The notes beneath the pieces were generated by a model. The model did not search any database. It saw only the letters and a list, made by a program, of their open reading frames with translations, and was not told where the DNA came from. This document shows, in pieces, positions 21,767 through 45,262 of a stretch of 64,000 nucleotides of DNA; the first letter of the stretch is position 1; each line of letters opens with the position of its first letter. This DNA is from an uncultured Gammaproteobacteria bacterium (GTDB lineage Bacteria; Patescibacteriota; Microgenomatia; UBA10105; UBA927): assembly GCA_964639945.1 (NCBI GenBank), contig CAZXHY010000002.1:183-64182 (forward strand). Reading direction: 5' to 3'. The position numbers were made by a program, and so were the translations under genes.

Positions 21767-22948
21767 CTAATCACGCTTTGACAGTATGCGTACTATTTTC
21801 ATAATTTCACCGTGCGTTAATATACCTGAAGAAGGTAAATACAATCCCTCACGCATCAACATATCCGATACGGGATACGATTCATTCGTCGTATACATCG
21901 CATACGCGGGCTGAAGATGTATGGGGATAAAAAATCCTCGTGTTTCTATACCATGCTTTGCCAAACGCAATCGCACCTGATCCCTCGTCATTCCATATGT
22001 GGACGCATCAACACGAAATCCAAACACCCAATGAGCATGCATGCTCTCAGGCGGAGTAATTGAAAATATAAACCCTCGTACTTCTTTAAGATATGTCTTA
22101 TACATAGCTGCTAATTTTTTGCGTTTCATAAAAAGCTCTCGAAATCGCTCTGTCTGACCCAGCCCTACAGCGGCCTGCAAGTTTGTCATGTTGTAACTAA
22201 ACCCAACATCGTTATGCCAAAAATGCGTTCTTTTACTAAATGCGTGGTCACGCAAATACGCTACTTTTTCAGCTAACGCCCGATCATTTGTCGTTACCAT
22301 GCCTCCCTCACCTGTCGTGATAATTTTATTGGCATACAAAGAAAATCCCGCAATATCACCAATTGAACCCACTCGTTTTCCTTTATATAAAGCACCATGT
22401 GCCTCAGCAGCATCCTCAATAACTCGAAGTCCGTGCTTCTTTGCTAACAAAAGCACAGGATCCATATCCACAGGGAGTCCATACACATGTACTACCATAA
22501 TAGCTTTTGTTTTCTTGGTTATTTTAGACTCGATCTTGGTCACATCCATATTCCATGTAAATGGATCTGCATCAATAAAGATTGGCTTGGCGCCACAATA
22601 CGTCACTGCATTTGCCGTAGCAATCATCGTGAATGTCGGGACAATAACCTCGTCGCCCTCCCCTATGTCACATGATAAAAGTGCCAAGTGAAGCGCTGAT
22701 GTGCCACTATTCACCGCTACTGCGTATCGGGTCTTTGACACAAGTTTTGCAAACGCCTTTTCAAACCGAGAAATATATGGCCCAGCCGACGATACCCATG
22801 TTGAACGGTATGCATCCAAAAGATAGACTTCTTCCAGTTTTGACAAGTCTGGCGCTGCTACTGAAATTTTATGGATACCTGCGAGTATAGGTTCTGGCAT
22901 CAGCGCAAATGAGTGCGCGTGAGCTACTGTATCAGTTCTATGTTTCAT
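21767..22948 (-). CDS. DegT/DnrJ/EryC1/StrS (ArnB-type) PLP-dependent sugar aminotransferase
   Basis: Has the Lys-containing motif FSLYANKIITTGEGGMVTTND, plus ...DAAEAHGA... and an N-terminal ...SGTSALHLAL... Confidence 0.85.
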   Translation of the reverse strand: MKHRTDTVAHAHSFALMPEPILAGIHKISVAAPDLSKLEEVYLLDAYRSTWVSSAGPYISRFEKAFAKLVSKTRYAVAVNSGTSALHLALLSCDIGEGDEVIVPTFTMIATANAVTYCGAKPIFIDADPFTWNMDVTKIESKITKKTKAIMVVHVYGLPVDMDPVLLLAKKHGLRVIEDAAEAHGALYKGKRVGSIGDIAGFSLYANKIITTGEGGMVTTNDRALAEKVAYLRDHAFSKRTHFWHNDVGFSYNMTNLQAAVGLGQTERFRELFMKRKKLAAMYKTYLKEVRGFIFSITPPESMHAHWVFGFRVDASTYGMTRDQVRLRLAKHGIETRGFFIPIHLQPAYAMYTTNESYPVSDMLMREGLYLPSSGILTHGEIMKIVRILSKRD

Positions 22949-23652
22949 ATCCGTTTCTTTGAAATACTATACGCTTCTTTTATATACGATATACACATCG
23001 ACAGTACACGCGACTTACTCTTTCCATACATTCGTCTTTTATAGTACACGGGCAACTCACATATATAAAATCCGCGTCGATGCGCATAATACACCAGACG
23101 AATATGGTAATCACCGTACCCAAAATATATCTGAGATAACCCAAAGTGAATAACTTCTTTTTTGAATATTGCGTAATATCCACTCGTACAATCTTTTACC
23201 GTAACACGAAGTATGTGGCGTAATACATAATTGATAAGCATGCTGAAATAGTACCTATATCTATCGTGCATACCACCACCCGCTACGAATCGTGAGGCTA
23301 TAACAAGAACGTGTGGTGCACTATACTCTATAAGACTTGGTAATAACAAAGGGTCATGATTTCCGTCGGCATCCATCCCAATGATCAATGTACCTCGCGC
23401 CCTTTCTATGCCAAATCCTATGGCTGTTCCCAGACCTTTTTTATCCACTCGCTCATATACATGAAGTTGTTCATATTTTTTTTGCAATGTAACAAATGTA
23501 TCACGAGAACCATCAGTGCTCATGTCATCGACCACGATGATTTCAAAACTACTATTTTTTAGGATAGTACATATTTGTGGGATCAGAATCTCCAAATTTC
23601 CTCGTTCATTAAACGTCGGCAAAATAATGGAGACGTATGGTTGCCGTTTCAT
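22945..23652 (-). CDS. GT2-family polyprenyl-phosphate sugar transferase (DPM1/GtrB/ArnC-like); start taken at MKRQPYV
   Basis: SIILPTFNERGNLE...VVDDMSTDGSRD...GMDADGNHDP. The ATG overlaps the stop of the upstream methyltransferase (ATGA at 23649-23652). Confidence 0.8.
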   Translation of the reverse strand: MKRQPYVSIILPTFNERGNLEILIPQICTILKNSSFEIIVVDDMSTDGSRDTFVTLQKKYEQLHVYERVDKKGLGTAIGFGIERARGTLIIGMDADGNHDPLLLPSLIEYSAPHVLVIASRFVAGGGMHDRYRYYFSMLINYVLRHILRVTVKDCTSGYYAIFKKEVIHFGLSQIYFGYGDYHIRLVYYAHRRGFYICELPVYYKRRMYGKSKSRVLSMCISYIKEAYSISKKRI

Positions 23653-24380
23653 TTTTTTGCAATCAAAAGAAGTGATGATCCCCAAGGAAATGACACGTAC
23701 GGTAAAAAGCGTGCTTCCAAACTGCACACAGCGTGCAGTATCGTATTTATCATCGGTGATATATGCTGTACGTCACTCACATGCTCCCTCTTATAAAAGA
23801 ATCGGTCATACAAACGTTTACCTATAAAAAATGGGAATGTAAAAAAGAACATATATCGTGAAAATAGCGGGGTCATATGTCCATTGTGTACTAGTGTTGC
23901 AAGTTTTGTAATAGTATATCGTTCACGTGCATGAAACAACCTGTCATGCGGTCCGTAAAGAAATGGCATAGCGCAATCCGTTATGACTAAAAATCCACCT
24001 TTTTTCAACACACGCCTCGCTTCTTTCAAAGCATTGGCGACATGTATATCTTTATGATAAAGCACATCGAAAAAACACACGATATCACATGATCCAGTGG
24101 CCAACCCGGTTCGCACCGCTGTGCCATATCGCAGAGTAATATGCCGCTTCTTAGCCAGCGTTCGACCAACAACATTTGGCTCTATTCCCGTGACCCTGCC
24201 GTATTGGCTCAAAAAATGCTCCATTCCACCCGTTCCAGCTCCAATATCAGCAATAATTGCACCATGCTTCTTCTTGATACCCATGATACAAAAGACAGCA
24301 CCTAAAAATTCTCTTCGCGCCAGAAACCACCAATGAGAAAATTCTACCGTAGACATAGTTACATATTCTTGCTTTTTCAT
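23649..24380 (-). CDS. Class I SAM-dependent methyltransferase (paralog of 25389..26120 and 40620..41387)
   Basis: Gly-rich SAM motif IADIGAGTGGM. Shared N-terminus HWWFLARREF and C-terminus FPWGSSLLLIAKK. Confidence 0.8.
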   Translation of the reverse strand: MKKQEYVTMSTVEFSHWWFLARREFLGAVFCIMGIKKKHGAIIADIGAGTGGMEHFLSQYGRVTGIEPNVVGRTLAKKRHITLRYGTAVRTGLATGSCDIVCFFDVLYHKDIHVANALKEARRVLKKGGFLVITDCAMPFLYGPHDRLFHARERYTITKLATLVHNGHMTPLFSRYMFFFTFPFFIGKRLYDRFFYKREHVSDVQHISPMINTILHAVCSLEARFLPYVSFPWGSSLLLIAKK

Positions 24381-24402
24381 ATAGGGAAAAACTATTCAAT
24401 CA

Positions 24403-25392
24403 CTAGTTATCATGTCTATTCTCTAAAATGATCTTCGCCTGATCATAGCAAATACCTTGATTTATTTGAGATAATGATTTGCATGCGACAGATGCTAGCC
24501 TTCCCACTCCATCTTCCGCAATTACCCCCTGTATAAACCCATACAAACAGCCTGTTGTCGCACGAACGTCTTCTCTCTGACAGGAAAGAATAGCATGTTG
24601 AAAGTCGACAGTACCAGCCAGATATATAGATTCTCCTATATGCGTATAACAACGAAACCGTAAGGACACGTCAGGAAGAGCAGAACACCCCATAAACTCT
24701 TGATCTAGTGTTCCGTATGACATATGCGAATCAAGTGTAGGAACAAAAAACTCCATAAAAACTCCGTCTAGACACTGAGCCTTATATTCCTCGGTGTAAA
24801 TTTTATCGCACAATTGCAGCGCATCAACCATAGATGGTGCTCCAACCTGCGCATACACATGTCCGAAAGCATGATAACAATTTATTGTTTCCATAGTGGA
24901 AGCAGATACGTCTGAAATCCCACATATTTGCTCAATCATAGAAATGGCAGACGGATTTGCCTTAATCTTTTCTAGGATAACTCCATGGACACACCCATCC
25001 CCACACGTTCGCCCTGTGCCGCACGACCTAATCAACGTTGGAATCGATGTCTCACTGCGAGCTACTATTTCGCCGATAATGTGACCTATCGTGTGACAGG
25101 TCGAGATACTACCATTTCTTGAAAAGAACTCTGGTGATTTTGCATGAGTCTCAAGATATTGCATAACAAACGGTAGTGTATGTGGCGATACAATAGGCCA
25201 AAGTCTTTGTCGCAAACAGCCTATGTATGCTTGATTTTGTATATTTTTTGCACACACAGCGAGTGTTTGTTGCAACGATCGAACGAGCACTTTCTCGCTG
25301 AATACATTTCCAAAAAATCCGATCCCTAACCCGATACAGAACACGCAAAGCGTCGTTCCCAACTTCCGAATATTTATTATATTTCTCATCAT
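24403..25392 (-). CDS. Cys/His-rich paralog family member 11 (start taken at MMRNIINI)
   Basis: TM anchor. Carries CHTIGHIIGE, DGCVHGVILE, CYHAFGHVYAQ, CLDGVFMEFF. The ATGATGA overlap with the stop of the upstream methyltransferase was checked in sequence at 25387-25392. Confidence 0.85.
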   Translation of the reverse strand: MMRNIINIRKLGTTLCVFCIGLGIGFFGNVFSEKVLVRSLQQTLAVCAKNIQNQAYIGCLRQRLWPIVSPHTLPFVMQYLETHAKSPEFFSRNGSISTCHTIGHIIGEIVARSETSIPTLIRSCGTGRTCGDGCVHGVILEKIKANPSAISMIEQICGISDVSASTMETINCYHAFGHVYAQVGAPSMVDALQLCDKIYTEEYKAQCLDGVFMEFFVPTLDSHMSYGTLDQEFMGCSALPDVSLRFRCYTHIGESIYLAGTVDFQHAILSCQREDVRATTGCLYGFIQGVIAEDGVGRLASVACKSLSQINQGICYDQAKIILENRHDN

Positions 25393-26120
25393 TTTTGTCC
25401 AATCAAAATAAGTGATGATCCCCATGGGAACCGCACAAACCGGAGTATAAACGCTTCCACAATACACACATATATAAGGACAACGTTTATCAACGAGTGA
25501 ACCATGCGTACATCAGACCGTTCTCGGTTACGCACGACGAGCTTACCACTGAGTCTTTTTGCAACAAATATCGGAAACAATAGGAAAAACAAATAACTAC
25601 TAAAGCGTATCGAAAAACCAGCTTTTTTTACTCGCGCTTCAAGCATGGAAATAGTGTATCGCTCACGACCACCAACAGCGTGGTCATTTGGTCCATACAA
25701 AAACGGCATGGCGCAATCAGTAATGACAACATGTCCTCCCTTTTTTACAACTCTATATGCTTCCCGAAGTGCCATATCATTATCAACCCCCTTATGGTAT
25801 AGCACATCAAATAGACAAACCACATCACACGATGCTGTGCGTAAACCCGTTTTTTCTGCGTTACCATTTCTCAACGTCACACCACGAGATTTTGCTAAAG
25901 AGCGCCCCACTATACTCGGCTCTACACCGATAACCGCTCCATATCGTTGCAAAAAAGCAATCATGCCACCGGTTCCCGCACCAATATCTGCGATTACTGA
26001 GGTACTTTTTGTGAATACACCCATCCTGTCAAAAGCTTGCGCAATAAAATTCCGTCTCGACACAAACCACCAATGAACATCCTCCACTTCAAACATAGCA
26101 ATATACTCATATTTTTTCAT
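25389..26120 (-). CDS. Class I SAM-dependent methyltransferase (tandem paralog of 23649..24380)
   Basis: IADIGAGTGGMIAF; HWWFVSRRNF; ends FPWGSSLILIGQK. About 60-65% identical to 23649..24380 by eye. Confidence 0.8.
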   Translation of the reverse strand: MKKYEYIAMFEVEDVHWWFVSRRNFIAQAFDRMGVFTKSTSVIADIGAGTGGMIAFLQRYGAVIGVEPSIVGRSLAKSRGVTLRNGNAEKTGLRTASCDVVCLFDVLYHKGVDNDMALREAYRVVKKGGHVVITDCAMPFLYGPNDHAVGGRERYTISMLEARVKKAGFSIRFSSYLFFLLFPIFVAKRLSGKLVVRNRERSDVRMVHSLINVVLIYVCIVEAFILRFVRFPWGSSLILIGQK

Positions 26121-26942: not shown

Positions 26943-27989
26943 TTGCCATGGAGCTATATTCATCAACATTCATTGATTCTTGATATTGAAAAACAGTCAT
27001 ATCGATCTTACAATACGGTCATGATCAGTCTATCAAAATCATCGTTACCCCTACATCTTCTGGCGATACTTATGTTTCTGATAGGAATATACCACGGCAC
27101 CCGCGCAACAGAACAGACGCCATTGAATATATATAAAGCTGAAACAAAAATCATAACAAAATTAATAAAACAAAACGAAATAGAAAAAGCACTTTTCTAC
27201 ATCAATGAGGCAAGCAAAAAATACCCACTATCTATGACTTTGGCCTTGTCATCAAATGCCGGAAAACAAATATATCAAAAAGAAGGTGTACGGGGACTTT
27301 TGCATTGCATAAAAAATGACACACCATCAACGTTTGGTTGTGTGCGCAGTATACTTTTAACAGAAAACTCATCACATCTAGAAGCTCATAGAGAAATACA
27401 TGACATTTGCACCAACAGCATAATTGACCAAGAAAAATCTGGTATGTGTCTTCATATAAGTGGACACGCATTACTAGGATCAAAGGGGTACAAAAAAACC
27501 GATGTCATTCACGCAAGAAATGAGTGTCAAAAAATTATTCCCACTAGTCCAAAAGAAGAGTCTGCGTGCACATTTGGTGTCCTGATGGAATACTTTGTCG
27601 CACGACTTGGGCCCAACGGACTTGGATTACAAAATAACCTAACCAAAATTCCACCTCAGGGATATTCTGAAAATAATCCATACGATATATGTACAGGAGA
27701 ACTTGAAAACGAGGCTTGCTTTAGCATGATACCCTCATGGTGGATATTAACTATCAAGCTTACTCCTGAAAAAGCAATCCAACACTGTCTCCAAATCCCA
27801 TCAAATGATTTAATCCAAACATGCCTCTCCTCATTGACACGAAAATTATTCGAAATAACAAGGAAAGAACAAGGCGCCACACCCGCTACATTAGACGATT
27901 TTTTAAAAATTTGCCTTCTCTATCCGGCAGAACACCGACAACACACATGTACTGAATTTATGGCATCACTTTTACTCAATGAGTATTAG
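26943..27989 (+). CDS. Divergent, more distant member 12 of the Cys/His-rich family (start possibly at MISLSKSS, nt 27021)
   Basis: TM anchor LHLLAILMFLIGIY. Carries FGCVRSILL, CLHISGHALLG, CTFGVLMEYF. Lacks the first H..GE unit. Confidence 0.65.
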   Translation: MPWSYIHQHSLILDIEKQSYRSYNTVMISLSKSSLPLHLLAILMFLIGIYHGTRATEQTPLNIYKAETKIITKLIKQNEIEKALFYINEASKKYPLSMTLALSSNAGKQIYQKEGVRGLLHCIKNDTPSTFGCVRSILLTENSSHLEAHREIHDICTNSIIDQEKSGMCLHISGHALLGSKGYKKTDVIHARNECQKIIPTSPKEESACTFGVLMEYFVARLGPNGLGLQNNLTKIPPQGYSENNPYDICTGELENEACFSMIPSWWILTIKLTPEKAIQHCLQIPSNDLIQTCLSSLTRKLFEITRKEQGATPATLDDFLKICLLYPAEHRQHTCTEFMASLLLNEY

Positions 27990-28009
27990 TGATATATGCT
28001 TGTACACGA

Positions 28010-29059
28010 TTAATTCTTAAAACGAGAAAATACTCGCCCCCAAAGAGCACCAGTAAAGATAAAACAATATAACACTAATCCTACGCCAAACCCTTTTATA
28101 GCAAATAGAAGACCTTTTTCGTGATAAATAAATAGAAGAAATGTCCGCATGAGCACGCCATGAACAAATAATGTAATTGCTAATAATCCGAACACTCTCA
28201 ACACTGGTACAGTGAGCACGCCCATAGTAGCGATAACACTTACAAGGCTCATGGCCGCACTCACAACCACCGCTACTGCTGAAAGAGTCACAATCGCCTC
28301 CTGAAGTGTTGTAGCCACTGGATCGAATTTCTTACGCTTGGCATACAGCTTCGTCCAATAATACGCACGTAAAAAATATTTCCTAGCGATCGGCCAAAAA
28401 TGCTCAAACTCATGCCTCACGCGAACTTGTGGAGCAAAAATAATTGCGTATCGACGAGCTATTCTATACGTAAGCTCTATATCTTCAACCAGTGGTGCTG
28501 GGTACGTTTCGTCAAATCCACCAAGACGCAAGAATACACTTCGCTTTATAGACGCTATCCGCGTAGAAAAAAGGAAATAATATCCACTCTTATCTCGCTC
28601 ATTTATCCAATAACTCCAGTCTCGAAGCGCTTTAAAATTAGGAAAAAAATCTTTGCTTTTTTGTTCTTTCACCCATACTCCTGTAAGCGCTAATACATCA
28701 GGGTCATCACGAAATATTTTAGCAATCTGTGCAAAGGTATCGGGAAACACTTCCACATCACCATCCAAAAACACCACAAAGGTTCCTTTTGCCCTCTCTA
28801 CCCCTCGATTTCTAGCTATCGCTGGCCCCCTATTCGTCTGAAGACGAACAGTTCGTAGCTGAAAGTTTTTCGTTTGTAATTTATTTTTCTGATCCATAAA
28901 CCACAAACCATCAACCGCAAATTCTTTTTTGCTTCCATCATCTACAATCACCACCTCATACGATGGGGCGTTTACACTTTTTTTTATGGAACCCAACAGT
29001 CGCACCAAATGACTTGGACTATTGTAGTAAGGAATAATAATGGAAAGATATGGTTTCAT
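28010..29059 (-). CDS. GT2 polyprenyl-phosphate sugar transferase with a C-terminal double-TM tail (GtrB/ArnC-like)
   Basis: SIIIPYYNSPSHL...VIVDDGS...FLDGDV, then two C-terminal TM helices. There is a 4-nt overlap with the upstream DegT gene. Confidence 0.8.
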   Translation of the reverse strand: MKPYLSIIIPYYNSPSHLVRLLGSIKKSVNAPSYEVVIVDDGSKKEFAVDGLWFMDQKNKLQTKNFQLRTVRLQTNRGPAIARNRGVERAKGTFVVFLDGDVEVFPDTFAQIAKIFRDDPDVLALTGVWVKEQKSKDFFPNFKALRDWSYWINERDKSGYYFLFSTRIASIKRSVFLRLGGFDETYPAPLVEDIELTYRIARRYAIIFAPQVRVRHEFEHFWPIARKYFLRAYYWTKLYAKRKKFDPVATTLQEAIVTLSAVAVVVSAAMSLVSVIATMGVLTVPVLRVFGLLAITLFVHGVLMRTFLLFIYHEKGLLFAIKGFGVGLVLYCFIFTGALWGRVFSRFKN

Positions 29060-30213
29060 GGGTGTTTCAGTGATCGCAATATCTGCTCTGTTGTGCCTAC
29101 CACATAATGAATCTCGCGAGGCTTCATACCTGCGTATATAGGCATCCGCACAAGCGTATTTGCTACATCCTCAGTAACAGGAAGCGATTGACGTGTCGTA
29201 GAAATTTTTCTCCCCATCGGAGAGGTATGAAGCGGAACATAATGCGTAGACACCTCAATACCCTTGCTGCGCATTTTTGACACGAACGCTTTTCGCACTT
29301 CCATAGAATGAAACTTCAGGGCATATATATGCCAATTTGGTTTAGTCATACCTTTTGGCACCACAGGCAACTGAACAATATCTGAAAATTGTTTAAACTT
29401 TTTTGTATACGTCGACGCAATACCTTGCCTTGCTTTTGTAATCTTGTCTATTTGGGCCAATTGCACATTGGTCAGAGATGCAAGTAGGTCTGACAAAAAA
29501 TAACTACTTCCCTCGCCTACCCATTGATATATAGAGACTTTTCCAGCCAGATATGCTGCACGATCCGTACCGATCGCACGAAAAATTTCCATCTTCGCTG
29601 CAAGCCCAGCGAGATTAGTAACAACCGCTCCACCCTCTCCACATGCCACATTTTTCGTACCGTGAAACGAAAAGGCGCCGGCATGACCGTAGGTACCCAG
29701 ACTCTTACCCTTATACTCACTTCCAATACAATGTGCTGCATCCTCGACAAGCCAGAGCTTGTGTTTTTTGGCTATACGCATCAACGCATCAAACCCATCG
29801 CCTGCCATACCAGCGAAATGCACAGTCATAATACCGACTGTTTTTTTTGTTATTCTTCGCTCGACATCTACAGGATCTAAACAGTACGTCTGGCTATCTA
29901 TATCTGCAAACACAGGTATGCCACCACTTCGCAATACGGCAGTTGCAGTAGATGCAAGCGTAAAACTTGGGACTATTACTTCATCCCCTGCGCTTACCTC
30001 AAGGCATGCCACGGCTATTTCCATCGCATGTGTACAATTTGTGACAGGTAACGCATATCGAGCTCCTGTTATTTTCTGTAGCCTTTTTCTCATTTGTGCA
30101 CTCTGTGGTCCATCGGCCGTTCCGCTACCCTGCCGCATGGCAGTAATCACCGCGCGCTCAGCTTTTGGTCCCCACAATGGCTTGTGCAATGGAATTTTCA
30201 TTTTGCCTATCAT
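29056..30213 (-). CDS. DegT/DnrJ/EryC1/StrS (ArnB-type) sugar aminotransferase
   Basis: FSFHGTKNVACGEGGAVVTN; EDAAHCIGS; N-terminal TAMEIAVACL. Confidence 0.85.
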   Translation of the reverse strand: MIGKMKIPLHKPLWGPKAERAVITAMRQGSGTADGPQSAQMRKRLQKITGARYALPVTNCTHAMEIAVACLEVSAGDEVIVPSFTLASTATAVLRSGGIPVFADIDSQTYCLDPVDVERRITKKTVGIMTVHFAGMAGDGFDALMRIAKKHKLWLVEDAAHCIGSEYKGKSLGTYGHAGAFSFHGTKNVACGEGGAVVTNLAGLAAKMEIFRAIGTDRAAYLAGKVSIYQWVGEGSSYFLSDLLASLTNVQLAQIDKITKARQGIASTYTKKFKQFSDIVQLPVVPKGMTKPNWHIYALKFHSMEVRKAFVSKMRSKGIEVSTHYVPLHTSPMGRKISTTRQSLPVTEDVANTLVRMPIYAGMKPREIHYVVGTTEQILRSLKHP

Positions 30214-30362
30214 ACTCGAAGCATAAATGTATTTACAAGATAACTTCTATGGCCATACATAGGCACTCTCTATATCGTTGTATTTTCGTCCAGCGAGATG
30301 CACAACATTTGTGGATACAAACAGAACAAAAAAACTCATCATGTGAAAAACGATATGCCGTA

Positions 30363-30896
30363 TCAAATAGACTTCACGACTTTTGCAGGAACCCCCACAG
30401 ACACTACTCTCTCAGGAATATTTTTTGTGACGACAGCACCTGCGCCGATCACACTTTCACGACCTATCGTCACCCCAGCAAGGATTATTGCGGCAGTTCC
30501 AACGTATACTCCTTTTTGAATCACCACCTTGGATTCTTTCGTAGGAAAATATCGTTGCAATGGATGTTCGGGGTACCCAACATTGATATGCGAAACGACA
30601 CATACTCGATTTGAAAGCGTTACATCATCTTCAAGAAACACACCACCTCGAACATCAATCATGACACCATCCCCTATGTAGCATCGTTTACCAATGCGTA
30701 CTTTACTAAATCCATAGTGATATGCATTTATAAAAACAACATCAAGGATGATTGTGTCATAACCAATCTTCGCTCCAGCTAACCGCAAAAAAAATACTCG
30801 CAGTGGTGGAAGTGACACATGTAAAACCCATGAAAATAATGAGTACCAAAGAAATCGAAACGCGCGACCCAAACCAATAGTTTCAATTATTTTCAT
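30363..30896 (-). CDS. Left-handed beta-helix (hexapeptide-repeat) sugar N-acetyltransferase (PglD/WbpD/NeuD-like)
   Basis: Tandem [LIV]GxxxxI hexapeptides, ending ...IGAGAVVTKNIPERVVSVGVPAKVVKSI. Confidence 0.75.
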   Translation of the reverse strand: MKIIETIGLGRAFRFLWYSLFSWVLHVSLPPLRVFFLRLAGAKIGYDTIILDVVFINAYHYGFSKVRIGKRCYIGDGVMIDVRGGVFLEDDVTLSNRVCVVSHINVGYPEHPLQRYFPTKESKVVIQKGVYVGTAAIILAGVTIGRESVIGAGAVVTKNIPERVVSVGVPAKVVKSI

Positions 30897-30899
30897 ATA

Positions 30900-31622
30900 C
30901 TACCTCTCTTTCGCAAGCAGTGCACGAAAGCTCCATAAGTTTAGCAGATAGTCAGCAGTATCACGAATAATATTCACCGATGACTGTTTGTCAAAACGTC
31001 GCAAAAATAACACCGGCACTTCGCAAATCGTCAACCCTGCTCGTTTGGCGCGGATCATAATCTCCGTATCCCAAAACCATCCAGTATGTACGGTTTTTGC
31101 AAGCAGCGGCAGGATGCTACTGCGTCGGAAAAACTTATACCCCGTCTCAGTGTCCAACCCTCCCGTCCCGACAAGAATGTCGGATAACCATTGATATCCA
31201 CGACTTAATATTTCCCGAATCAATGATCCTGTACTGGAGCGATATATACGCTTCCCTATTGCTACATCTGCCTTTCGCTCAAGTATGAGAGAAACCAACT
31301 GCGGAATATATTCGGGACCAACTTCACAATCTATGTCGATAAACCCTATCACCTCTCCCTTGGCTCTCATAAACCCATCGGCTACCGTCTTCCCTCGACC
31401 ACAATTCGTACGATGAAATACTGCAGAAGTGTGAGGGTATTTTTTACATGCCTTTGCAATTAAATCACGAGTTGCATCGCGACTTTTATCGTCTACAAAT
31501 ATGATCTCATACGAACGCTTACTGTGACGCAAAGTTTCTACAATTCTTTCCACGCTAGAAGCAAAAACATCAACTTCATTAAAACATGCAAGTATGAGAG
31601 AAAAATCAAGACGCTTTGTCAT
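30900..31622 (-). CDS. GT2-family glycosyltransferase (DPM1/ArnC-like)
   Basis: SLILACFNEVD...FVDDKSRDATRD...IDIDCE. Confidence 0.75.
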   Translation of the reverse strand: MTKRLDFSLILACFNEVDVFASSVERIVETLRHSKRSYEIIFVDDKSRDATRDLIAKACKKYPHTSAVFHRTNCGRGKTVADGFMRAKGEVIGFIDIDCEVGPEYIPQLVSLILERKADVAIGKRIYRSSTGSLIREILSRGYQWLSDILVGTGGLDTETGYKFFRRSSILPLLAKTVHTGWFWDTEIMIRAKRAGLTICEVPVLFLRRFDKQSSVNIIRDTADYLLNLWSFRALLAKER

Positions 31623-31693
31623 TTGGAGTATAGTACGATGTTTACATCTTTTTCACAATTGTGGTTTCGCTTAGTGCGAAATAGAATACAACA

Positions 31694-32947
31694 ATGCAAG
31701 ATCATGTCACATCGCATACACAATGCATTCTTTGTGGAAGTACACATACAACTCCATACCTGTCACTTGGTAGAATGGCCCCTGCCAATAATTTTGTGAA
31801 ATTCAGTCGAGTCATAAAACCGCAAAAACGGTATCCATTAGGCCTCATGTATTGTCACGTATGCCACAGCTCCCAACTCACTCACACAATCTCACCCAAA
31901 ATTCTATTCGCACACTATGCGTATTTTTCTTCTACGTCACCCATGTTGGTTTCTCACTTTGCAAAATACGCAAAAACAATTAAAAAACGATTCCCCACCC
32001 TTTCCCAACACCTTGTTGTGGATATAGGAAGCAATGATGGTGTGCTTCTCAAACCATTACAACGTCTTGGTGCGCATGTGCTTGGTGTCGATCCTGCAAA
32101 AGAATGTAGCAACCTTGCAATACAATCTGGTATTCCTACTCTACAAACATACTTCACCCCAAAGGTAGCCAAACAAATACAAAAGCGATACGGCAACGCC
32201 TCAATCATCACAGCAAACAATGTATTAGCCCATACTCCCTATATTCACGAATTTATTCGAGGCGTGCACATGTTATTACAGCAGGATGGGATATTTGTAT
32301 TTGAAGTGAAGTATATGGGCGACATACTAGAAAAAAACGAGTTTGACATCATTTATCATGAGCATGTATTTTCCTATCTCCTACATCCATTAGTCAGTCT
32401 GCTTCTCACTCATAAACTCAAAGTTTTTGATGTACAACACGTAGACATTCATGGAGGATCTCTCAGAGTGTATGCTGCGCACAGTCATGCTTCCATGCCT
32501 ATACAGCAGTCTGTGAAGAAACTGCTCAAAGAAGAAAAGGTCAAAGGGTACACACAGATTTCGACATATAAAGCGTTTGCCAAAAAACCTGCACATGTTA
32601 AAAAAGCACTTCAAACATTGCTTCGCACACTTGTGAAAAAAGGAAAACGCATAGCAGGCTATGGAGCATCAGCAAAAGGAACAACCATGCTACAGTACTG
32701 CAACCTCAACACTCATACTATCGACTACATCGTGGATAGTGCTACATCAAAAATAGGAACATATACCCCCGCCACCCACATCCCAATCTTGGATCCCAAA
32801 GAATTAACAACGCGCACACCCGACTACATACTTCTACTTGCGTGGGATCACAAAGATTCAATCCTAAAAAAGGAACGGTGGTTTGCTGCCCGTGGTGGCA
32901 CATACATACTCCCTATCCCCACTCCCACACTCATCAAGCCATCCTAG
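31694..32947 (+). CDS. NDP-hexose C-methyltransferase-like enzyme (TylC3/NovU-type: Zn-ribbon, SAM MTase, C-methyltransferase C-terminal domain)
   Basis: N-terminal CxxC...CxxC (CILCGS...CHVCHS); SAM motif VVDIGSNDGVLL; C-terminal GYGASAKGTTMLQY...DYIVD...PDYILLLAWDHKDSI, typical of sugar C-methyltransferases. Confidence 0.7.
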   Translation: MQDHVTSHTQCILCGSTHTTPYLSLGRMAPANNFVKFSRVIKPQKRYPLGLMYCHVCHSSQLTHTISPKILFAHYAYFSSTSPMLVSHFAKYAKTIKKRFPTLSQHLVVDIGSNDGVLLKPLQRLGAHVLGVDPAKECSNLAIQSGIPTLQTYFTPKVAKQIQKRYGNASIITANNVLAHTPYIHEFIRGVHMLLQQDGIFVFEVKYMGDILEKNEFDIIYHEHVFSYLLHPLVSLLLTHKLKVFDVQHVDIHGGSLRVYAAHSHASMPIQQSVKKLLKEEKVKGYTQISTYKAFAKKPAHVKKALQTLLRTLVKKGKRIAGYGASAKGTTMLQYCNLNTHTIDYIVDSATSKIGTYTPATHIPILDPKELTTRTPDYILLLAWDHKDSILKKERWFAARGGTYILPIPTPTLIKPS

Positions 32948-33716
32948 GGATAAAACGCGCAAACGTTCGAACTCCCCATCTACTCAACACATATTCATAT
33001 AAAACAACAAATGTTTCTAACGCAAACACAGTCGAATGTCGCAAGCTTATAGATGTATGTTCTTTTCTATAATCGCACCGAACGGGAATTTGACCTATGC
33101 GTAAATTAAAATACTTTGCCTGAGCAATACTCTCAAAACTAAACAAGTGACTTTTTGAAGCAGTTGAAAGATTGACTATCTCTATAAACTGACGACTATA
33201 TATACGAAACCCAGAATGAAACTCAGAGACGGGAATACCCAGCACGATACGCTCGATAAAACTTAGCGCTATGTTTGCGACATACCTCACCCTAGGCATC
33301 CCAAGACGTAGCGGTTCAAAAATCGTATTAAATCGAGTACCCAATAGTAAATCATACGATCCAGCGACACTTTTTTTATAGGCTTCAGGAATTATCGTGG
33401 GATCATATTGCCCATCTCCGTGAATTTCAACAACGTATGATGCTCCCATAGCATGCGCCTGAGACAGTCCAAACGTCATATTTCCCCCGTACCCTAGATG
33501 AGCATGAGTAAAAAAAGGGACTCCCAGCTGCTTTGCCACATCTTTTATGTTATCGCGTGAACCATCATCAACTATGATAAGGACGTCGAGTGCGCCTTTA
33601 GGGATTCGAGATACGATATCTGCTACTAGTCGTGCACAATTATAGGTGAGAATAACGCCAATAACTTTACCCTTCTTCTTTTGGTTCATGATTTGTATTT
33701 TTTTGACTCGCTTCAT
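32934..33716 (-). CDS. GT2-family glycosyltransferase (start taken at MKRVKK)
   Basis: GVILTYNCARLV...IVDDGSRDNIKD...EIHGDGQYDP. Confidence 0.75.
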   Translation of the reverse strand: MKRVKKIQIMNQKKKGKVIGVILTYNCARLVADIVSRIPKGALDVLIIVDDGSRDNIKDVAKQLGVPFFTHAHLGYGGNMTFGLSQAHAMGASYVVEIHGDGQYDPTIIPEAYKKSVAGSYDLLLGTRFNTIFEPLRLGMPRVRYVANIALSFIERIVLGIPVSEFHSGFRIYSRQFIEIVNLSTASKSHLFSFESIAQAKYFNLRIGQIPVRCDYRKEHTSISLRHSTVFALETFVVLYEYVLSRWGVRTFARFIPRMA

Positions 33717-33735
33717 GATTGACTCATCTACATAT

Positions 33736-35349
33736 CTACTTTCGTATAAACCACGTCTTATCATTCGTAAGCGGCTGATAATACTCGTCTATGTATTGAC
33801 GATCAAGCGAAGATATATCATTGAGCCGATATAGCCTTCCCTGATAGATATATACCGGATGTTTGCGTCTCAATCCATCAGACAATGTATTCACTGGTCT
33901 TGAAAGAAACGGAGAATATTGCCCCAGCGGCAGACAGCACCCATATGCTGGATCTCGAAAATATATAGTTGCCCCAACTAGGTCTAACACATACGAATCT
34001 TTCGGTATGGTTTGCAGTGCAAACGCAAGCGTGCGCACATCTTCTGCATTCGTCCATAGTCGTTTGGGATTATTTACCCCTTCTGAAATCTGCCACAAGA
34101 AAACAATGCATACTGCATAGACTAAAACAAAAACACTTCTCCATATTCGAGTGCCTATCACAGTCCAAATCGACCAAATCACGTCTCCAACATACAGCGC
34201 GACAAATACCGCGATAGGAATCAAATATTGCGCATGTCGCAACGGATATCCATACATAAATGTCACAATATAGGCAAGAAACGATCCTCCCACAAGAAGC
34301 TCTACCCATGCACCTGTTTTATTCTTCCCACCAATCAACGGAGTTACTAATCTCCATACTCCAACCAACAATCCAACCATCCACACGGCATGATTAGCCA
34401 TCAATTCTCTACTCCACCCGCCGACTCCATAATAATTATTATTTGGATAAAAAAATAAATCTGGTTGCATAGGAAAAAGTTGCCCAATTTTATTTACCTC
34501 CAATGGAAGCTTCGTCAACGAATACATCACCAACTCCACATCACCGATACTCCGACTTGTGGCAAGGATCCATGCGCCAAATATACATAATGGCAATCCA
34601 ATTCCTAACATAAATACGACCAATCTAGAATATTTTTTGGACATGCCAAATGTAGCAAACACCCCGACAATTACCGCTATCGCTATTTGTGGCAAAGATT
34701 TCGGTAACAATAACAATGACGCCCCATACGCCAAACCAGACCACCATGCAAACGCCATTCGTTGGCTTTCGAGCCATCGAATCTGCAAATACAATCCAAC
34801 AAATGCGATAAGAGTTGCTATATTATCAGGACGTATCTCAAGCATTTTATCTGCAGGTAATGGCAAAAATGTGAGCACAGAAGCAGGAAGGAATAATATC
34901 CACCACGATTCCATCACGCCTGTTGGTTTACGGATTTGCTTCAAAACCAAGCCTGTCACTGCTCCAAGAAAAACAAACACCACAAAGGCAATTACTCGGC
35001 TGATCGATAAAATGGTCGTATCGTTGGTAAACAAAAACACTGGCGCCAAAAACCACAAAAATCCGGGAGGCACATAGAAGAAAAAATCAATATATGGTAA
35101 TTTTCCCGTAAACACATTATGTGCCCAATGCAGATACGCTAGTTCATCTGCATCAAAATATCGCACAAGACCCAATTCAAGACGTGTTGATAGTAACAGA
35201 AAGAGAAAAATTACTGTTACAATAATGAGTATGAATATGGGCGCTTTATAGAAAGAATGTTTCATTATTGTACTTATTATGCCAGTAACGGTTGCGATTA
35301 TCATAGCCCTGATTACCATCTCAAACTCATGGCACGTACTCACCGGCAT
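33736..35349 (-). CDS. Polytopic membrane glycosyltransferase, GT-C fold (ArnT/PMT-like); true start possibly at MKHSFYK (nt 35265)
   Basis: More than 12 TM helices. First-loop DADE motif (RYFDADELAYLHWAHN). Confidence 0.65.
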   Translation of the reverse strand: MPVSTCHEFEMVIRAMIIATVTGIISTIMKHSFYKAPIFILIIVTVIFLFLLLSTRLELGLVRYFDADELAYLHWAHNVFTGKLPYIDFFFYVPPGFLWFLAPVFLFTNDTTILSISRVIAFVVFVFLGAVTGLVLKQIRKPTGVMESWWILFLPASVLTFLPLPADKMLEIRPDNIATLIAFVGLYLQIRWLESQRMAFAWWSGLAYGASLLLLPKSLPQIAIAVIVGVFATFGMSKKYSRLVVFMLGIGLPLCIFGAWILATSRSIGDVELVMYSLTKLPLEVNKIGQLFPMQPDLFFYPNNNYYGVGGWSRELMANHAVWMVGLLVGVWRLVTPLIGGKNKTGAWVELLVGGSFLAYIVTFMYGYPLRHAQYLIPIAVFVALYVGDVIWSIWTVIGTRIWRSVFVLVYAVCIVFLWQISEGVNNPKRLWTNAEDVRTLAFALQTIPKDSYVLDLVGATIYFRDPAYGCCLPLGQYSPFLSRPVNTLSDGLRRKHPVYIYQGRLYRLNDISSLDRQYIDEYYQPLTNDKTWFIRK

Positions 35350-36871
35350 GATACAAAATCCACCTGAACACCTATTTACAGGAATAGCTCATTATTTCGC
35401 TGACTATTTCCTCTACGTATCAGCGATAGCACAAGCACAGAACTCTCCAAGCCTTTTTGTGGAACATCTATTCACCAATGAACCACTTATTCCTACATGG
35501 ATATACTGGTTTAATGCACTACTAGGAAAAATTCCTATTAGTCCATTTTTGTCATACAACATATCGCTTATATTGCTTGTTGCAGGTCTCCTCCTCCTTC
35601 TTTGGCACATCACCAAACGATCACTCAGCGATTCTACAACAATGTATGTAACATTCATCATAGCCGTTACCGCTTCAAATTTTTTTGATTTCACCACATT
35701 TTTTCGCTTCGGAACATTTAAACTGCTTGGAGATTTTTGGTTCTCTCCCACTCCAGCGCTCAATCGTTTAGGCGGAGTGCCACATCAAGTGCTCCAGACC
35801 ATATTGAGCTTATTGGTCATACTTTTATACACAAAGCTATCTGAATCTTCCAAAAAAAACCCATCACAATACGTGCTCCTCGGTGTAGTCTCGTTTCTTG
35901 CGGCCACGGCAAACCCCATACAAATGCTTCTGGTAGCACTTTCTATTCTTGCAATATTTATGTGGAAAAACTACAAACAAATCCCAAAATCCGCAGACAT
36001 TATCGTGGCTAGCATAGCACTCCTGCCCGCGCTACTGGGTGCTATGGTTACTAATTTTGAATTCTCCCATCAGCCTATACTCACTGCGGCAAAAACTTGG
36101 GAAAATAATCAACAATTTTCGCTATCTATTTTCCAATTTATTTGGGCGCTAGGGCCCATCGGGTTCTTTATCCCATTTGGGATCTTTGCGTTCATAAAAA
36201 AGCATACTCATCTCTACGCTTCCCTCGTGGTGTATACACTCCTTAGTCTTATATTCTTTTTTTCACCTCTACCGACATATCTAGGAACCTCTGCTGTTCG
36301 ATGGCTTTCTCCAGCATCCTACATAGGGCTAGCACTTCTTGCTGGATCTGGATATATGTGGTGTATTGCGATCATTGGCAAAAAACTAAAACACCCCCAA
36401 CTCACCATAGGTGTCGCACTTTCGCTCTACCTATTACTCACGATCCCCTCAATACTTACACAAATACAAACACGCACCACACCACTTACCACAGACGCAA
36501 AACTCATATCGCTAAACCATATTCCATTCGACGTGGTAGACGGACTTATACATATCCAAAACGCGAGAGAGGAAGGCGTGGTGCTGACCGACCCCACACT
36601 ATTTTATGATGTGGTAATCCCTGTAATGACGGGGAAAAAAAGCTTCACAGGCCACCCCATCCACACTCTATATCCAGAGACAAAAAAAGCGCTCCGCCAA
36701 GAAATATTTTCAGGAACTATGAACGATCAAGTAGCGGAAGTATTTATGAAAAATCATGCAATAACCTATATCATTTCTTCTCCACGTCATTCAAGAATCT
36801 TTAATGGTTATCCATTTTTGACCGTTCTTTTCTCAAACACATCAGTCGTCATTTACCAAAGGACACCATGA
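35279..36871 (+). CDS. Polytopic membrane protein (530 aa), GT-C-like; paralog of 47786..49408
   Basis: The shared N-terminal region HYFADYFLYVSAIAQAQ matches HHPSDYFYYVSQFAQGA in the paralog. Has more than 12 TM helices. Overlaps the downstream gene by 4 nt. Confidence 0.6.
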   Translation: MPVTVAIIIALITISNSWHVLTGMIQNPPEHLFTGIAHYFADYFLYVSAIAQAQNSPSLFVEHLFTNEPLIPTWIYWFNALLGKIPISPFLSYNISLILLVAGLLLLLWHITKRSLSDSTTMYVTFIIAVTASNFFDFTTFFRFGTFKLLGDFWFSPTPALNRLGGVPHQVLQTILSLLVILLYTKLSESSKKNPSQYVLLGVVSFLAATANPIQMLLVALSILAIFMWKNYKQIPKSADIIVASIALLPALLGAMVTNFEFSHQPILTAAKTWENNQQFSLSIFQFIWALGPIGFFIPFGIFAFIKKHTHLYASLVVYTLLSLIFFFSPLPTYLGTSAVRWLSPASYIGLALLAGSGYMWCIAIIGKKLKHPQLTIGVALSLYLLLTIPSILTQIQTRTTPLTTDAKLISLNHIPFDVVDGLIHIQNAREEGVVLTDPTLFYDVVIPVMTGKKSFTGHPIHTLYPETKKALRQEIFSGTMNDQVAEVFMKNHAITYIISSPRHSRIFNGYPFLTVLFSNTSVVIYQRTP

Positions 36872-38493
36872 AGTTTATAAAAAAACATGTCGCAACATTG
36901 CTCATTTCTGGATTCCTTGTACTTCATCTGGTCATCATGCCTTCCTATGGCTTTACGTGGGATTTTCACTTTCACTTCTTCGGAGGCGGACATCTTTTGG
37001 GGTATAGTTGGCAGCAACTAGAATCTCGCGACTTACCCTATACCGAACCAGACCCGAGGCTTGCGTGGAGCTTGCCGTATGGGCCTATTATGTCTATCCC
37101 ACCCATTGCATCATTTCTCGCCCTCCACAAATTATGGAACATTCTTCCTGCAGATAACGCGTATCACCTTCCAATCGTGCTATGGGGAGTACTCGGAATT
37201 GTTATCGTTTACTTGTTCCTTAAGGAGGCAGTAGGTCGCAATGTAGCAATCATCGCAGCAATATCTCTCGCGCTTACCCCTCGATACTTTGGCGACATGC
37301 ACAATAATATGAAAGATATCCCCTCTGCGGTAATATTTGCGCTGAACATGTGGCTCGTGTGGCGACTTGCGACCAAAAAACGCCCCATCGACCTTATACT
37401 GGCTGCGAGTGCCTTTGCTATGGCTTTCAGTGTCAAAATTAATAGCATTTTTGTACCAATTGTCTTTGCTACATGGTTTCTCCTCACTCAATTACCAATT
37501 CAGGCAATCACTAAGTTTTTCACTCGAAATACACTCATACTCTTGTATTGGTTGGTTGCGCCTATTTTTGCACTCTTGTTGTGGTGGGCGTTCTGGCCAA
37601 ACCCTCTCCTACAACTAGATCACGCATACCGAACATTCGGCATAGGAACAAATAATATAGAAGTTTTGCTCAATGGAACATGGTATTGCTCTGGAAGTAC
37701 TGTGCCGCGGTATTATCCTTACTGGTATTTGGCTATAACAACCCCACTTCCTATCTTGTTCTTTTGCATCATAAGCCTTATTCGCATTCTAAAATCCATA
37801 GTACAAAAAAGAGTAAAACACTTCGAACTACTCCTTGTTTGCTGGTTGTTTATACCACTCGCTCGTTATCTCCTTCCCCAAATTGGCGTCATAGATGGCG
37901 TTAGACATTTCGAGGAGACACTAATCCCTATAGCGATACTTGCAGCGCTTTCATTTTCCGACCTTGTGAGGGTGCTGGCGCAACAACAGAAATCTATGAG
38001 CGTAGCACTTATCGTAGCAATCACCTGCTGGCTCTCGTGGAACATTGTATCGTATCACCCTTACCAAATAACGTATTTCAATGAGCTTGTAGGCGGCATA
38101 CGAGGTGCGTACGGAAAATACGACCTCGATTATTGGGGCACATCACAAAAAGCAGCAGTCGAGTGGGTAAACAAAAACGCCCCACAAAACGCTAAAGTCC
38201 ACATTGTCATGGCTGCAAACGTAGCAGGCACGTATTTACGATCGGATCTACTTACCAATTTGAACAAGTTTGGATATGATGAATCTGATTTTGTTATATT
38301 TTTAAATCGTCAGTCATTCTTCTACCGATTCTTCTACGCATATGAATACCTACTTGCCCATACGCCTACTTACACGATAACCTCTCAAGGTGTTCCTCTC
38401 ACATGGATTTTTGATAACCGAACCAACAATCAAATCCCCCGTCAATCACCTTGGTGGCAAAAAGAAGATCCATGTATCCTCAAGTACTGGTAA
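36868..38493 (+). CDS. Polytopic membrane glycosyltransferase, GT-C fold (PMT/ArnT-like); paralog of 41359..42924
   Basis: About 12 TM helices. Shares a C-terminal YDLDYWGTSQKAAVEWVNKN motif with the paralog (FDFDYWGFSVGELVTKVNN). Confidence 0.65.
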   Translation: MKFIKKHVATLLISGFLVLHLVIMPSYGFTWDFHFHFFGGGHLLGYSWQQLESRDLPYTEPDPRLAWSLPYGPIMSIPPIASFLALHKLWNILPADNAYHLPIVLWGVLGIVIVYLFLKEAVGRNVAIIAAISLALTPRYFGDMHNNMKDIPSAVIFALNMWLVWRLATKKRPIDLILAASAFAMAFSVKINSIFVPIVFATWFLLTQLPIQAITKFFTRNTLILLYWLVAPIFALLLWWAFWPNPLLQLDHAYRTFGIGTNNIEVLLNGTWYCSGSTVPRYYPYWYLAITTPLPILFFCIISLIRILKSIVQKRVKHFELLLVCWLFIPLARYLLPQIGVIDGVRHFEETLIPIAILAALSFSDLVRVLAQQQKSMSVALIVAITCWLSWNIVSYHPYQITYFNELVGGIRGAYGKYDLDYWGTSQKAAVEWVNKNAPQNAKVHIVMAANVAGTYLRSDLLTNLNKFGYDESDFVIFLNRQSFFYRFFYAYEYLLAHTPTYTITSQGVPLTWIFDNRTNNQIPRQSPWWQKEDPCILKYW

Positions 38494-45231: not shown

Positions 45232-45262
45232 GACATATTCCCTGCCTACACAAGTTTTTTCT

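Follow-up and report, generated by a model that had tools for sequence, protein, structure and literature searches.

Gene content of the locus

We analyzed a 64-kb stretch of DNA (64,000 nucleotides, hereafter the window) from contig CAZXHY010000002.1 of assembly GCA_964639945.1, with emphasis on six neighboring genes that encode three family 2 glycosyltransferases (GT2s), a DegT-family aminotransferase, a hexapeptide acetyltransferase and a nucleoside diphosphate (NDP)-hexose C-methyltransferase (C-MT), together with the membrane proteins encoded beside them. The source contig measures 64,202 bp and sets the reach of the searches for partner genes; the host is a Microgenomates-group, Woesebacteria-like bacterium of the Candidate Phyla Radiation (CPR; Patescibacteria). 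On the minus strand, the gene for a GT2 named here, like the others, after its length in amino acids, GT2(349) (28010-29059; 349 aa; Pfam Glycos_transf_2, 2.5e-24), overlaps by 4 bp that of a WecE-like, pyridoxal phosphate (PLP)-dependent DegT aminotransferase (29056-30213; 385 aa; DegT_DnrJ_EryC1, 1.8e-93). On the same strand follow a left-handed β-helix (hexapeptide) acetyltransferase of the WcaF/LacA type (30363-30896; 177 aa; Hexapep, 3e-10) and, with 3 bp between the former and its stop, the short soluble GT2(240) (30900-31622; 240 aa; Glycos_transf_2, 8.2e-25). The C-MT gene lies on the plus strand (31694-32947; 417 aa; TylC3/TcaB9/KijD1/MtmC class, with Methyltransf_13, S-adenosylmethionine (SAM) and Methyltransf_14 domains) and converges, with a 14-bp overlap at 32934-32947, on a second short soluble GT2 on the minus strand, GT2(276) (32934-33764; about 250-276 aa; Glycos_transf_2, 1.4e-12). 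Next to it, a polytopic membrane protein with the GT-C fold, GT-C(537) (33736-35349, minus strand; 509-537 aa), is the first gene of a conserved operon of which GT2(349) is the last, and a divergently transcribed pair of genes on the plus strand (35279-38493) encodes two more membrane proteins of the GT-C type, one of 530 aa without annotation and one of 541 aa that contains a PMT_2 domain.

All six open reading frames (ORFs) delineated in the first-pass annotation were recovered at its coordinates and strands, and the ORF list together with the Pfam matches bore out its gene types; the domain assignments, as judged from these profile matches, are unambiguous and far above chance. The sole uncertain coordinate is the start of GT2(276), which may be 33716 (as first annotated), 33764 (the longest ORF) or about 33689, the last being the 251-aa call made in a near-identical contig. 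Scans of the 64-kb window for tRNAs and Rfam families returned no matches. A promoter and terminator scan of 27800-35500 yielded 18 and 10 hits, respectively, at or near the expectation from shuffled sequences (20.0 ± 4.1 and 5.4 ± 2.3), and set no operon boundaries.

A sugar C-methyltransferase from a very large family

The C-MT comprises the three domains of TylC3-class enzymes, namely Methyltransf_13 (PF08421, 1.3e-15), a class I SAM domain (PF13489, 9.5e-12) and the C-terminal Methyltransf_14 (PF08484, 2.1e-55), the last matched over profile positions 2-160 of 160; the C-terminal C-methyltransferase domain on which the first-pass assignment had been made to depend is thus present. Along its full length it aligned with the solved sugar C-3-methyltransferases MtmC (2.8e-86; 293 bits, 35.7% identity across 409 ungapped positions), KijD1 (3.5e-70) and TcaB9 (1.2e-68). 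The four zinc cysteines (C11, C14, C54 and C57) are kept in alignment with those of KijD1 and MtmC. Five residues of the TcaB9 active site, which we take to be Y76, H181, Y222, E224 and H225, were reportedly probed by Bruender and Holden in 2012; the aligned positions in the C-MT are Y75, H180, Y221, E223 and H224, with the same offset at all five. The assignment as a genuine TylC3-class sugar C-methyltransferase therefore stands, whereas the description of the protein as divergent does not, given its identity and bit score to MtmC and the retention of all probed active-site residues. All three solved homologs are C-3 enzymes. The predicted product of the C-MT is a C-methyl-branched 6-deoxyhexose donor, most likely methylated at C-3.

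The family to which the C-MT belongs contains 3,920 clusters at 50% identity (E ≤ 1e-30, among 1.84 billion representatives), and the 293 bits of MtmC would rank only about 95th among the family matches. The nearest relatives carrying names come from the CPR phyla Woese-, Levy-, Davies-, Magasanik- and Doudnabacteria. A cell-surface use of the class has been proposed in silico for the homolog CBU_0691 of Coxiella burnetii, assigned to the lipopolysaccharide (LPS) sugar virenose (PMC3539893). With so many clusters, the many CPR genomes among them and this proposed precedent, the earlier view that such an enzyme is unusual outside antibiotic pathways was not upheld; judged from its homologs, the C-MT is a common, ordinary enzyme of these genomes. 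Many homologs are 690-960 aa long (P0361, P0367 and P0371 among those named), and two (P0014 and P0078) are fused to RmlD/epimerase-type short-chain dehydrogenase/reductase (SDR) domains, an arrangement that supports a predicted tight functional coupling of the C-MT to a dehydratase or reductase, an enzyme that the window lacks.

Aminotransferase and acetyltransferase

The DegT protein scored 358.9 bits against the NCBIfam family NF008687 (dTDP-4-amino-4,6-dideoxygalactose transaminase; cutoff 375) and 313.6 bits against TIGR02379 (cutoff 434.85), so that the WecE type appears to be its closest family, at a score just below equivalog membership. Its best solved relatives were WecE (4piw, 2.1e-64), then 6blg, with ArnB third, and its PLP-lysine context FSFHGTK aligned with FSFHETK of WecE. 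It is hence predicted to be an NDP-4-keto-6-deoxyhexose 4-aminotransferase forming a 4-amino-4,6-dideoxyhexose, and not to perform the PglE/WbpE chemistry that had been suggested for it.

The acetyltransferase has a hydrophobic N-terminal segment and the conserved motifs LLRxAGAxIG and THINVGYxDHPLQ. It matched the NCBIfam WcaF family over residues 11-175 (4.8e-23; 81.7 bits, below the cutoff of 192), and this family was the best, full-length match for all 22 of 22 proteins when 21 orthologs were included (best 2.2e-27). WcaF and the HpsU polysaccharide O-acetyltransferases were the only families matched along the full length, whereas N-acetyltransferase families covered just the last 50 or so residues, which consist of generic hexapeptide turns. 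TIGR03570, the family that tests for PglD/WbpD/NeuD-type proteins, was likewise limited to residues 123-172, with no match to the N-terminal nucleotide-sugar-binding domain, and the PglD and PerB structures aligned over about 50 residues only. In a single-sequence search of the Protein Data Bank (PDB), N-acetyltransferases and O-acetyltransferases appeared side by side with scores near 50 bits; a profile built from the orthologs separated them, with LacA (4.1e-19) and maltose O-acetyltransferase (MAT, 4.9e-19) leading. H103 and H111 are invariant among the orthologs, and their alignment to the catalytic His of LacA and MAT is off by 2-4 residues. Together, these comparisons favor a WcaF/LacA-type enzyme with predicted O- over N-specificity. 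A sugar aminotransferase and a hexapeptide acyltransferase do lie beside the C-MT, as had been stated; the PglD/WbpD assignment, and with it the logic of a di-N-acetylated sugar (PglE/PglD or WbpE/WbpD), gave way to a WecE-like and a WcaF-like enzyme.

GT2 and GT-C glycosyltransferases

The three GT2s differ in how closely they approach the synthases that load sugars onto polyprenyl phosphate. For GT2(240), seven of the eight solved relatives at E ≤ 1e-5 were DPMS (5mlz, 8.3e-12), ArnC (three) and GtrB sequences, the weakest being GalT1; with matches almost exclusively of this kind, it is predicted to be a polyprenyl-phosphate sugar synthase of the DPMS/ArnC/GtrB type. GT2(276) found its best NCBIfam matches in PpgS (62.5 bits), AglJ and a dolichyl-phosphate hexose transferase, and its AlphaFold2 model (mean predicted local distance difference test, pLDDT, 91.5) had GpgS, DPMS, ArnC and GtrB as Foldseek neighbors at about equal template modeling (TM) scores near 0.6. 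This model is consistent with a probable polyprenyl-phosphate sugar synthase, less specifically so than the matches of GT2(240). GT2(349) carries two or three C-terminal transmembrane helices at residues 255-335, a GtrB/ArnC-like topology, so that its first designation as GtrB-like is fair in that sense; its solved relatives are mixed (TarS, chondroitin synthase, GtrB and DPMS). For GT2(276) and GT2(349) we infer a polyprenyl-phosphate acceptor.

GT-C(537) had no Pfam match even at E = 1. It has about ten transmembrane helices, and its 217 homologs are all unnamed or labeled hypothetical and come from CPR bacteria wherever an organism is named. The AlphaFold2 model was of high confidence (pLDDT 93.3; predicted TM score 0.91), and all 26 of its Foldseek matches in the PDB at E ≤ 1e-3 were GT-C enzymes (STT3, AglB, PglB, ALG9, ArnT, Pmt4, AftA and Emb). 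GT-C enzymes carry catalytic acidic residues just after the first transmembrane helix, and in this family R63, D66, D68 and E69 are invariant just after that helix. By its predicted structure, GT-C(537) thus represents an unannotated, CPR-restricted family with the GT-C fold. Each member of the divergent pair beside it has eight transmembrane helices, with PMT_2 detected at 3.3e-12 in the 541-aa protein.

A conserved operon and an inserted two-gene cassette

Gene-neighborhood analysis was carried out on 53 loci from reference genomes of Gottesman- and other Patescibacteria, anchored on the GT-C(537) family, with ORFs labeled by their best match to the window proteins and loci numbered as L007 and so forth. 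In at least 23 of the 53, GT-C(537), GT2(240) and the acetyltransferase are co-directional and contiguous in this order, with no C-MT in the operon; in 17 of these the WecE-like DegT comes directly next, followed by GT2(349). Across all 53 loci, GT2(240) was found in 31 (directly after the GT-C gene in each), the acetyltransferase in 30, DegT in 21 and GT2(349) in 42, and orthologs of the divergent pair lie immediately upstream of GT-C(537) in 28 and 24. DegT adjoins the acetyltransferase in 21 of the 30 loci that have the latter, and the acetyltransferase is kept where DegT is absent (L014, L015, L017, L027, L048 and L011). The C-MT occurs in just two of the 53. One is L012, which is the Woesebacteria contig also represented by L007; in the other, L024, a C-MT and an adjacent, co-directional GT2 form a distant pair elsewhere in the locus. 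Since the operon order without the C-MT recurs so widely and the C-MT so rarely, the C-MT and GT2(276) are, as read from gene order, an insertion between GT-C(537) and GT2(240) in the lineage of the window (the window, L007, L008 and L011). The closest named relative of the window is a Woesebacteria metagenome-assembled genome at 73% identity, and the spacing of 1.5 kb between the C-MT and DegT is kept at this identity in L007 and L008.

The inserted pair itself recurs. A C-MT with a convergent GT2 was found in the window, L007, L008, L010, L011, L068 and L069 (Doudnabacteria), the last four with an overlapping partner of about 250 aa; L009 is also among the loci with the C-MT/GT2 pairing (L007-L011). 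Thirteen of the best 120 homologs each of the C-MT and of GT2(276) lie on contigs of identical size. In L010 and L011 the cassette is present and the WecE-like DegT is absent from the syntenic site. A dehydratase-like SDR stands directly upstream of the C-MT in L065, L066, L068 and L069; such SDRs upstream of CPR C-MTs are weakly most similar to NDP-sugar 4,6-dehydratases, and none was found in the lineage of the window. Elsewhere in CPR bacteria the cassette is also accompanied by a large membrane protein, and a Levybacteria C-MT locus adds a GDP-type nucleotidyltransferase, for which reason dTDP is not to be assumed as the carrier. On this distribution, the C-MT and GT2(276) are predicted to form a common, mobile two-gene cassette across the CPR. 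The implied view of the six genes as one conserved pathway did not survive the comparison, given an amino-sugar operon without C-MT in at least 23 loci and a cassette without DegT in two. We also considered the C-MT, GT2(276) and GT-C(537) as a dedicated triad and rejected it, as the GT-C family is chiefly linked to GT2(240), the acetyltransferase and DegT without a C-MT.

The identity of DegT to its orthologs in C-MT-free genomes was 48-71%, compared with 54-70% for GT2(349), 52-65% for GT2(240) and 49-67% for the acetyltransferase. DegT is accordingly no more diverged than its neighbors, which is weak evidence, drawn from sequence identity, that its substrate is perhaps unchanged.

Related loci show that the operon is plastic. 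In L008/L009 (7059-8678 of L008), DegT and the acetyltransferase are separated by an inserted gene of 539 aa that matches exosortase (EpsH) weakly, and a carbamoyltransferase gene lies between the C-MT cassette and the GT-C gene in L011 (12207-13871), hinting at O-carbamoylated sugars. The operon was also seen at 40-50% identity in many third-party annotation (TPA) assemblies titled "uncultured Gammaproteobacteria bacterium" (L014, L016, L017, L021-L023, L026, L028 and others), titles that look like placeholder or erroneous taxonomy.

The surrounding glycosylation island

The six genes belong to a broader region rich in similar functions. About 14 polytopic GT-C-like proteins of 410-780 aa are encoded in the window (9772-11424 and 15759-54440), several with PMT_2, GT87, DUF2079 or YfhO domains and several others unannotated, among which those at 35279-36871, 42941-44617 and 47786-49408 form a paralog family of their own. 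This density per 64 kb is unusually high for a genome likely to measure about 1 Mb; four related contigs span 1.0-1.2 Mb, in line with CPR genomes of about 1 Mb. Besides these, the glycosylation genes of the window encode six GT2s, each abutted by a tailoring gene, along with three aminotransferases of the DegT family, four methyltransferases of class I and one cupin. At least 40 kb of the window is predicted to be given over to extracytoplasmic glycosylation. Pfam scans took in 46 of the 47 ORFs taken as genes (36 of them at E ≤ 1e-4 or 1e-5 only). Within this scope no SDR (including 4,6-dehydratases and ketoreductases), nucleotidyltransferase, phosphoglycosyltransferase, Wzx/Wzy, Wzz or ABC-transporter family was detected, in agreement with the earlier expectation that the 4,6-dehydratase and the nucleotidyltransferase would be found away from the locus.

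Other modules of similar composition were observed in the island. On the plus strand, 44671-47075 encodes an RmlC/cupin-like protein (186 aa), the third DegT (372 aa) and a short ArnC-like GT2 (229 aa; 95 bits to the ArnC family), then a 540-aa GT-C-like protein; this gene content suggests that an isomerase or epimerase and an aminotransferase together lead to a further amino sugar on a lipid carrier. At 21767-23727 (minus strand), the genes for a LegC/PseC-like DegT of 393 aa and a short GT2 of 260 aa share 4 bp, and two tandem class I methyltransferase paralogs, 54% identical, flank a cysteine-repeat gene at 23649-26120 (minus strand). Additionally, the plus-strand gene at 50254-52119 encodes an 8-helix membrane protein with a C-terminal NPCBM domain (6.3e-32), a layout that recalls GT-C enzymes with carbohydrate-binding modules; this gene is conserved beside that of a 782-aa membrane protein in several Gottesmanbacteria loci (L042, L043, L050, L058 and L061).

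About 13 paralogous ORFs of 300-430 aa without Pfam matches were found at 1035-13667 (minus strand), 24403-25467 (minus strand) and 26943-27989 (plus strand), two of them inside the glycosylation island. All carry a single hydrophobic anchor at the N terminus and between 12 and 23 cysteines, which in the five paralogs examined occur as pairs 10-12 residues apart every 33-34 residues or so, with the look of a disulfide-type repeat. These could be surface proteins, or even acceptors of glycosylation. Beside the island lies a giant 3158-aa ORF (54448-63924, minus strand) that has a hydrophobic segment at its N terminus, lacks any Pfam match and could encode a surface protein.

Separate lipid-linked donors or a single sugar

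We consider it somewhat probable that the region 28010-35349 is part of an island of at least 40 kb that works through polyprenyl-phosphate donors and supplies separate sugars. The six genes would then look like three pairs feeding membrane GT-C glycosyltransferases, and not like one pathway to a single exotic sugar. What the analyses above show is the identity of each gene, the fold of GT-C(537), the synteny of the region and the way in which the cassette is inserted. The ancestral operon would comprise GT-C(537), GT2(240), the WcaF-like acetyltransferase, the WecE-like 4-aminotransferase and the membrane-anchored GT2(349). At the cytoplasmic face, DegT would act on an NDP-4-keto-6-deoxyhexose supplied by genes in another part of the genome and yield an NDP-4-amino-4,6-dideoxyhexose. 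The DPMS/ArnC/GtrB-like GT2s would put sugars onto polyprenyl phosphate, and one of these sugars would be acetylated by the acetyltransferase, with oxygen as the likelier site and the membrane as a possible location. The lipid-linked donors would be flipped by a protein outside those identified and transferred by the GT-C enzymes to an extracytoplasmic acceptor. The inserted cassette, the C-MT with its own convergent GT2(276), would add a separate C-methyl-branched 6-deoxyhexose donor, as its association with an SDR and a large membrane protein elsewhere in the CPR implies. From this gene content we infer which lipid and which nucleotide carry the sugars, how the steps follow one another, the regiochemistry and the acceptor.

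Several observations weigh against such a scheme, whose acceptor and biochemistry are predicted from the genes. Among the transferases, GT2(349) mixes polymer-building GT2s with GtrB and DPMS among its solved relatives, the sequence search of solved structures returned no relative of GT2(276) at 1e-5, and GpgS, which acts on a soluble acceptor, scores equal to DPMS, ArnC and GtrB as its structural neighbor. The top structural matches of GT-C(537) are oligosaccharyltransferases, which use diphosphate-linked donors. No flippase family (GtrA, SMR or MATE) was detected among the scanned window ORFs, between which intergenic gaps measure at most 149 bp; the gene for a flippase may lie in another part of the genome, or one of the unannotated membrane proteins may have this role. 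An 84-aa ORF between GT2(276) and the GT-C gene in L007/L008 was examined as a candidate and set aside, being soluble and absent from the window. Finally, the 4-keto group left after C-methylation needs reduction or amination, and with no ketoreductase in the window the aminotransferases are the sole 4-keto-consuming enzymes nearby, which favors a single sugar. MtmC, the closest solved homolog of the C-MT, is a bifunctional 4-ketoreductase/3-C-methyltransferase (PMC10269268), and this bifunctionality offers another way out for the 4-keto group.

A single sugar is what the first-pass annotation had in mind. In a scheme of this kind, C-3 methylation, then 4-transamination and then N-acetylation of one NDP-4-keto-6-deoxyhexose would yield a kansosamine-like 4-acetamido-4,6-dideoxy-3-C-methylhexose donor for the neighboring GT2s. 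The C-MT and WecE-like DegT families share NDP-4-keto-6-deoxyhexoses as their substrate class, with which the best matches of both proteins are consistent; their genes keep their close spacing in L007 and L008, the acetyltransferase adjoins DegT in most loci that have it, and the window lacks any 4-ketoreductase or other SDR, including the usual SDR partner of the cassette. Such a sugar is chemically possible and the enzyme types are present, but the separable phyletic patterns neither require nor favor it. The amino-sugar operon occurs without any C-MT and the cassette without DegT, the C-MT has a dedicated GT2 of its own across the CPR, and DegT shows no extra divergence in the C-MT-bearing lineages. 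The acetyltransferase, moreover, falls in the WcaF/LacA-like O-acetyl clade and not with PglD, WbpD or WecD, and persists where DegT is absent. We therefore regard one N-acetylated, C-methylated amino sugar as rather unlikely, and as less supported than separate donors.

A conventional surface-polysaccharide locus (O-antigen, capsule or exopolysaccharide), with unusual nucleotide sugars from the tailoring enzymes and a repeat unit assembled by the GT2s on cytoplasmic undecaprenyl diphosphate, would accommodate the WcaF-type acetyltransferase, which is typical of such loci, and GT2(349), which is as close to the polymer-building EpsD, TarS and chondroitin-synthase-type GT2s as to GtrB. We hold it to be improbable, for the Pfam scans of 46 of the 47 window ORFs taken as genes, most of them at E ≤ 1e-4 or 1e-5 only, detected no initiating phosphoglycosyltransferase, Wzx, Wzy, Wzz or ABC-transporter family, the window presents some 14 GT-C-type proteins instead, and GT2(240) matches polyprenyl-monophosphate sugar synthases almost exclusively. 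That the best-characterized homologs of the C-MT (MtmC, KijD1 and TcaB9) come from antibiotic pathways could also suggest a deoxysugar cassette that decorates a small-molecule aglycone. This we find scarcely credible in a CPR host with the locus embedded among membrane GT-C enzymes: the Pfam scans of the window detected no polyketide synthase, nonribosomal peptide synthetase, GT1-family glycosyltransferase, 2,3-dehydratase or ketoreductase, and the clusters of the C-MT family far exceed the known antibiotic producers.

Comparison with known systems

The proposed separate donors find their nearest counterparts in pathways that share a donor-flip-transfer logic, namely the Arn, Gtr, CsbB/YfhO and PpgS/Rv3779 systems (PMC11127046, PMC8035078). 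The Arn pathway (ArnB, ArnA, ArnC, ArnE/F and ArnT), which adds aminoarabinose to lipid A, likewise encodes together an aminotransferase, an acyl-transfer step, a GT2 and a GT-C enzyme; its aminotransferase is also a DegT-family 4-aminotransferase, ArnB being the third-best solved relative of DegT, ArnC is among the solved relatives of GT2(240), and ArnT is among the structural neighbors of GT-C(537) at a TM score of about 0.5. The locus departs from it in that DegT resembles WecE, which acts on 6-deoxyhexoses, more than it resembles ArnB, a WcaF-like hexapeptide protein is the acyltransferase whereas ArnA is a formyltransferase, two or three GT2s stand in place of one, and the window contains no deacylase or ArnE/F-type flippase. 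As lipid A is not expected in CPR bacteria, the acceptor must differ from that of Arn.

The three-component paradigm of extracytoplasmic glycosylation (defined in PMC11127046), as in GtrA/GtrB/Gtr*, CsbB/GtcA/YfhO and mycobacterial PpgS/Rv3779 (PMC11127046, PMC8035078), places DPMS/GtrB/PpgS-like GT2s beside GT-C-fold enzymes. The polyprenyl-phosphate sugar synthase component is matched here by GT2(240), with GT2(276) consistent, and the GT-C-fold transferase encoded beside it by the model of GT-C(537); proteins with YfhO and PMT_2 domains also lie in the same island. The differences are the lack of a detected flippase in the window, the scale of the island, which unites some 14 GT-C-like proteins with six GT2s, and the coupling of each GT2 to a nucleotide-sugar tailoring enzyme, including a C-methyltransferase. 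Our literature search found no described three-component system with such coupling, and no relevant paper on CPR/Patescibacteria glycosylation with GT-C enzymes.

Compared with sugar-tailoring routes, DegT is nearly an equivalog of WecE of the WecE/WecD route to dTDP-Fuc4NAc of the enterobacterial common antigen, whereas WecD is a GNAT N-acetyltransferase and the acetyltransferase here a WcaF-like hexapeptide protein, and the transferases are GT2 and GT-C enzymes instead of WecF/WzyE. The C-MT shares its three-domain architecture, zinc cysteines and active-site residues with TylC3, EryBIII, MtmC, TcaB9 and KijD1; unlike in those systems, no dehydratase, reductase or 2,3-dehydratase adjoins it here, and the partner constantly found with it is a short GT2 instead of a glycosyltransferase of family GT1. 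All catalytic families involved are known. What appears new is so in degree: a cassette conserved in the CPR that couples a C-MT to a GT2 of the polyprenyl-phosphate type, a GT-C family restricted to the CPR and so far unannotated, and the scale of the island.

We tentatively advance, as something short of probable, the broader proposal that in Microgenomates CPR bacteria two kinds of sugar, C-methyl-branched deoxysugars and 4-amino-4,6-dideoxy sugars, reach the cell surface separately, as monosaccharides linked to polyprenyl phosphate, through modular pairs of a tailoring enzyme and a short GT2 and a battery of GT-C enzymes that includes at least one unannotated family. The C-MT/GT2 cassette would then be a mobile unit adding a branched sugar to an existing surface glycan; the giant protein of 3158 aa and the surface proteins with cysteine repeats that are encoded nearby are possible acceptors. 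In these genomes the sugar C-methyltransferase is a common enzyme, and an exotic single sugar is the less supported of the two readings. Passage of a branched (C-methyl) sugar through a polyprenyl-phosphate/GT-C pathway would, if true, widen the substrate range of three-component systems, and the 537-aa family, if confirmed, would be a new GT-C family. For CPR bacteria, with genomes of about 1 Mb and a lifestyle thought to be host-attached, surface chemistry is central and almost undescribed.

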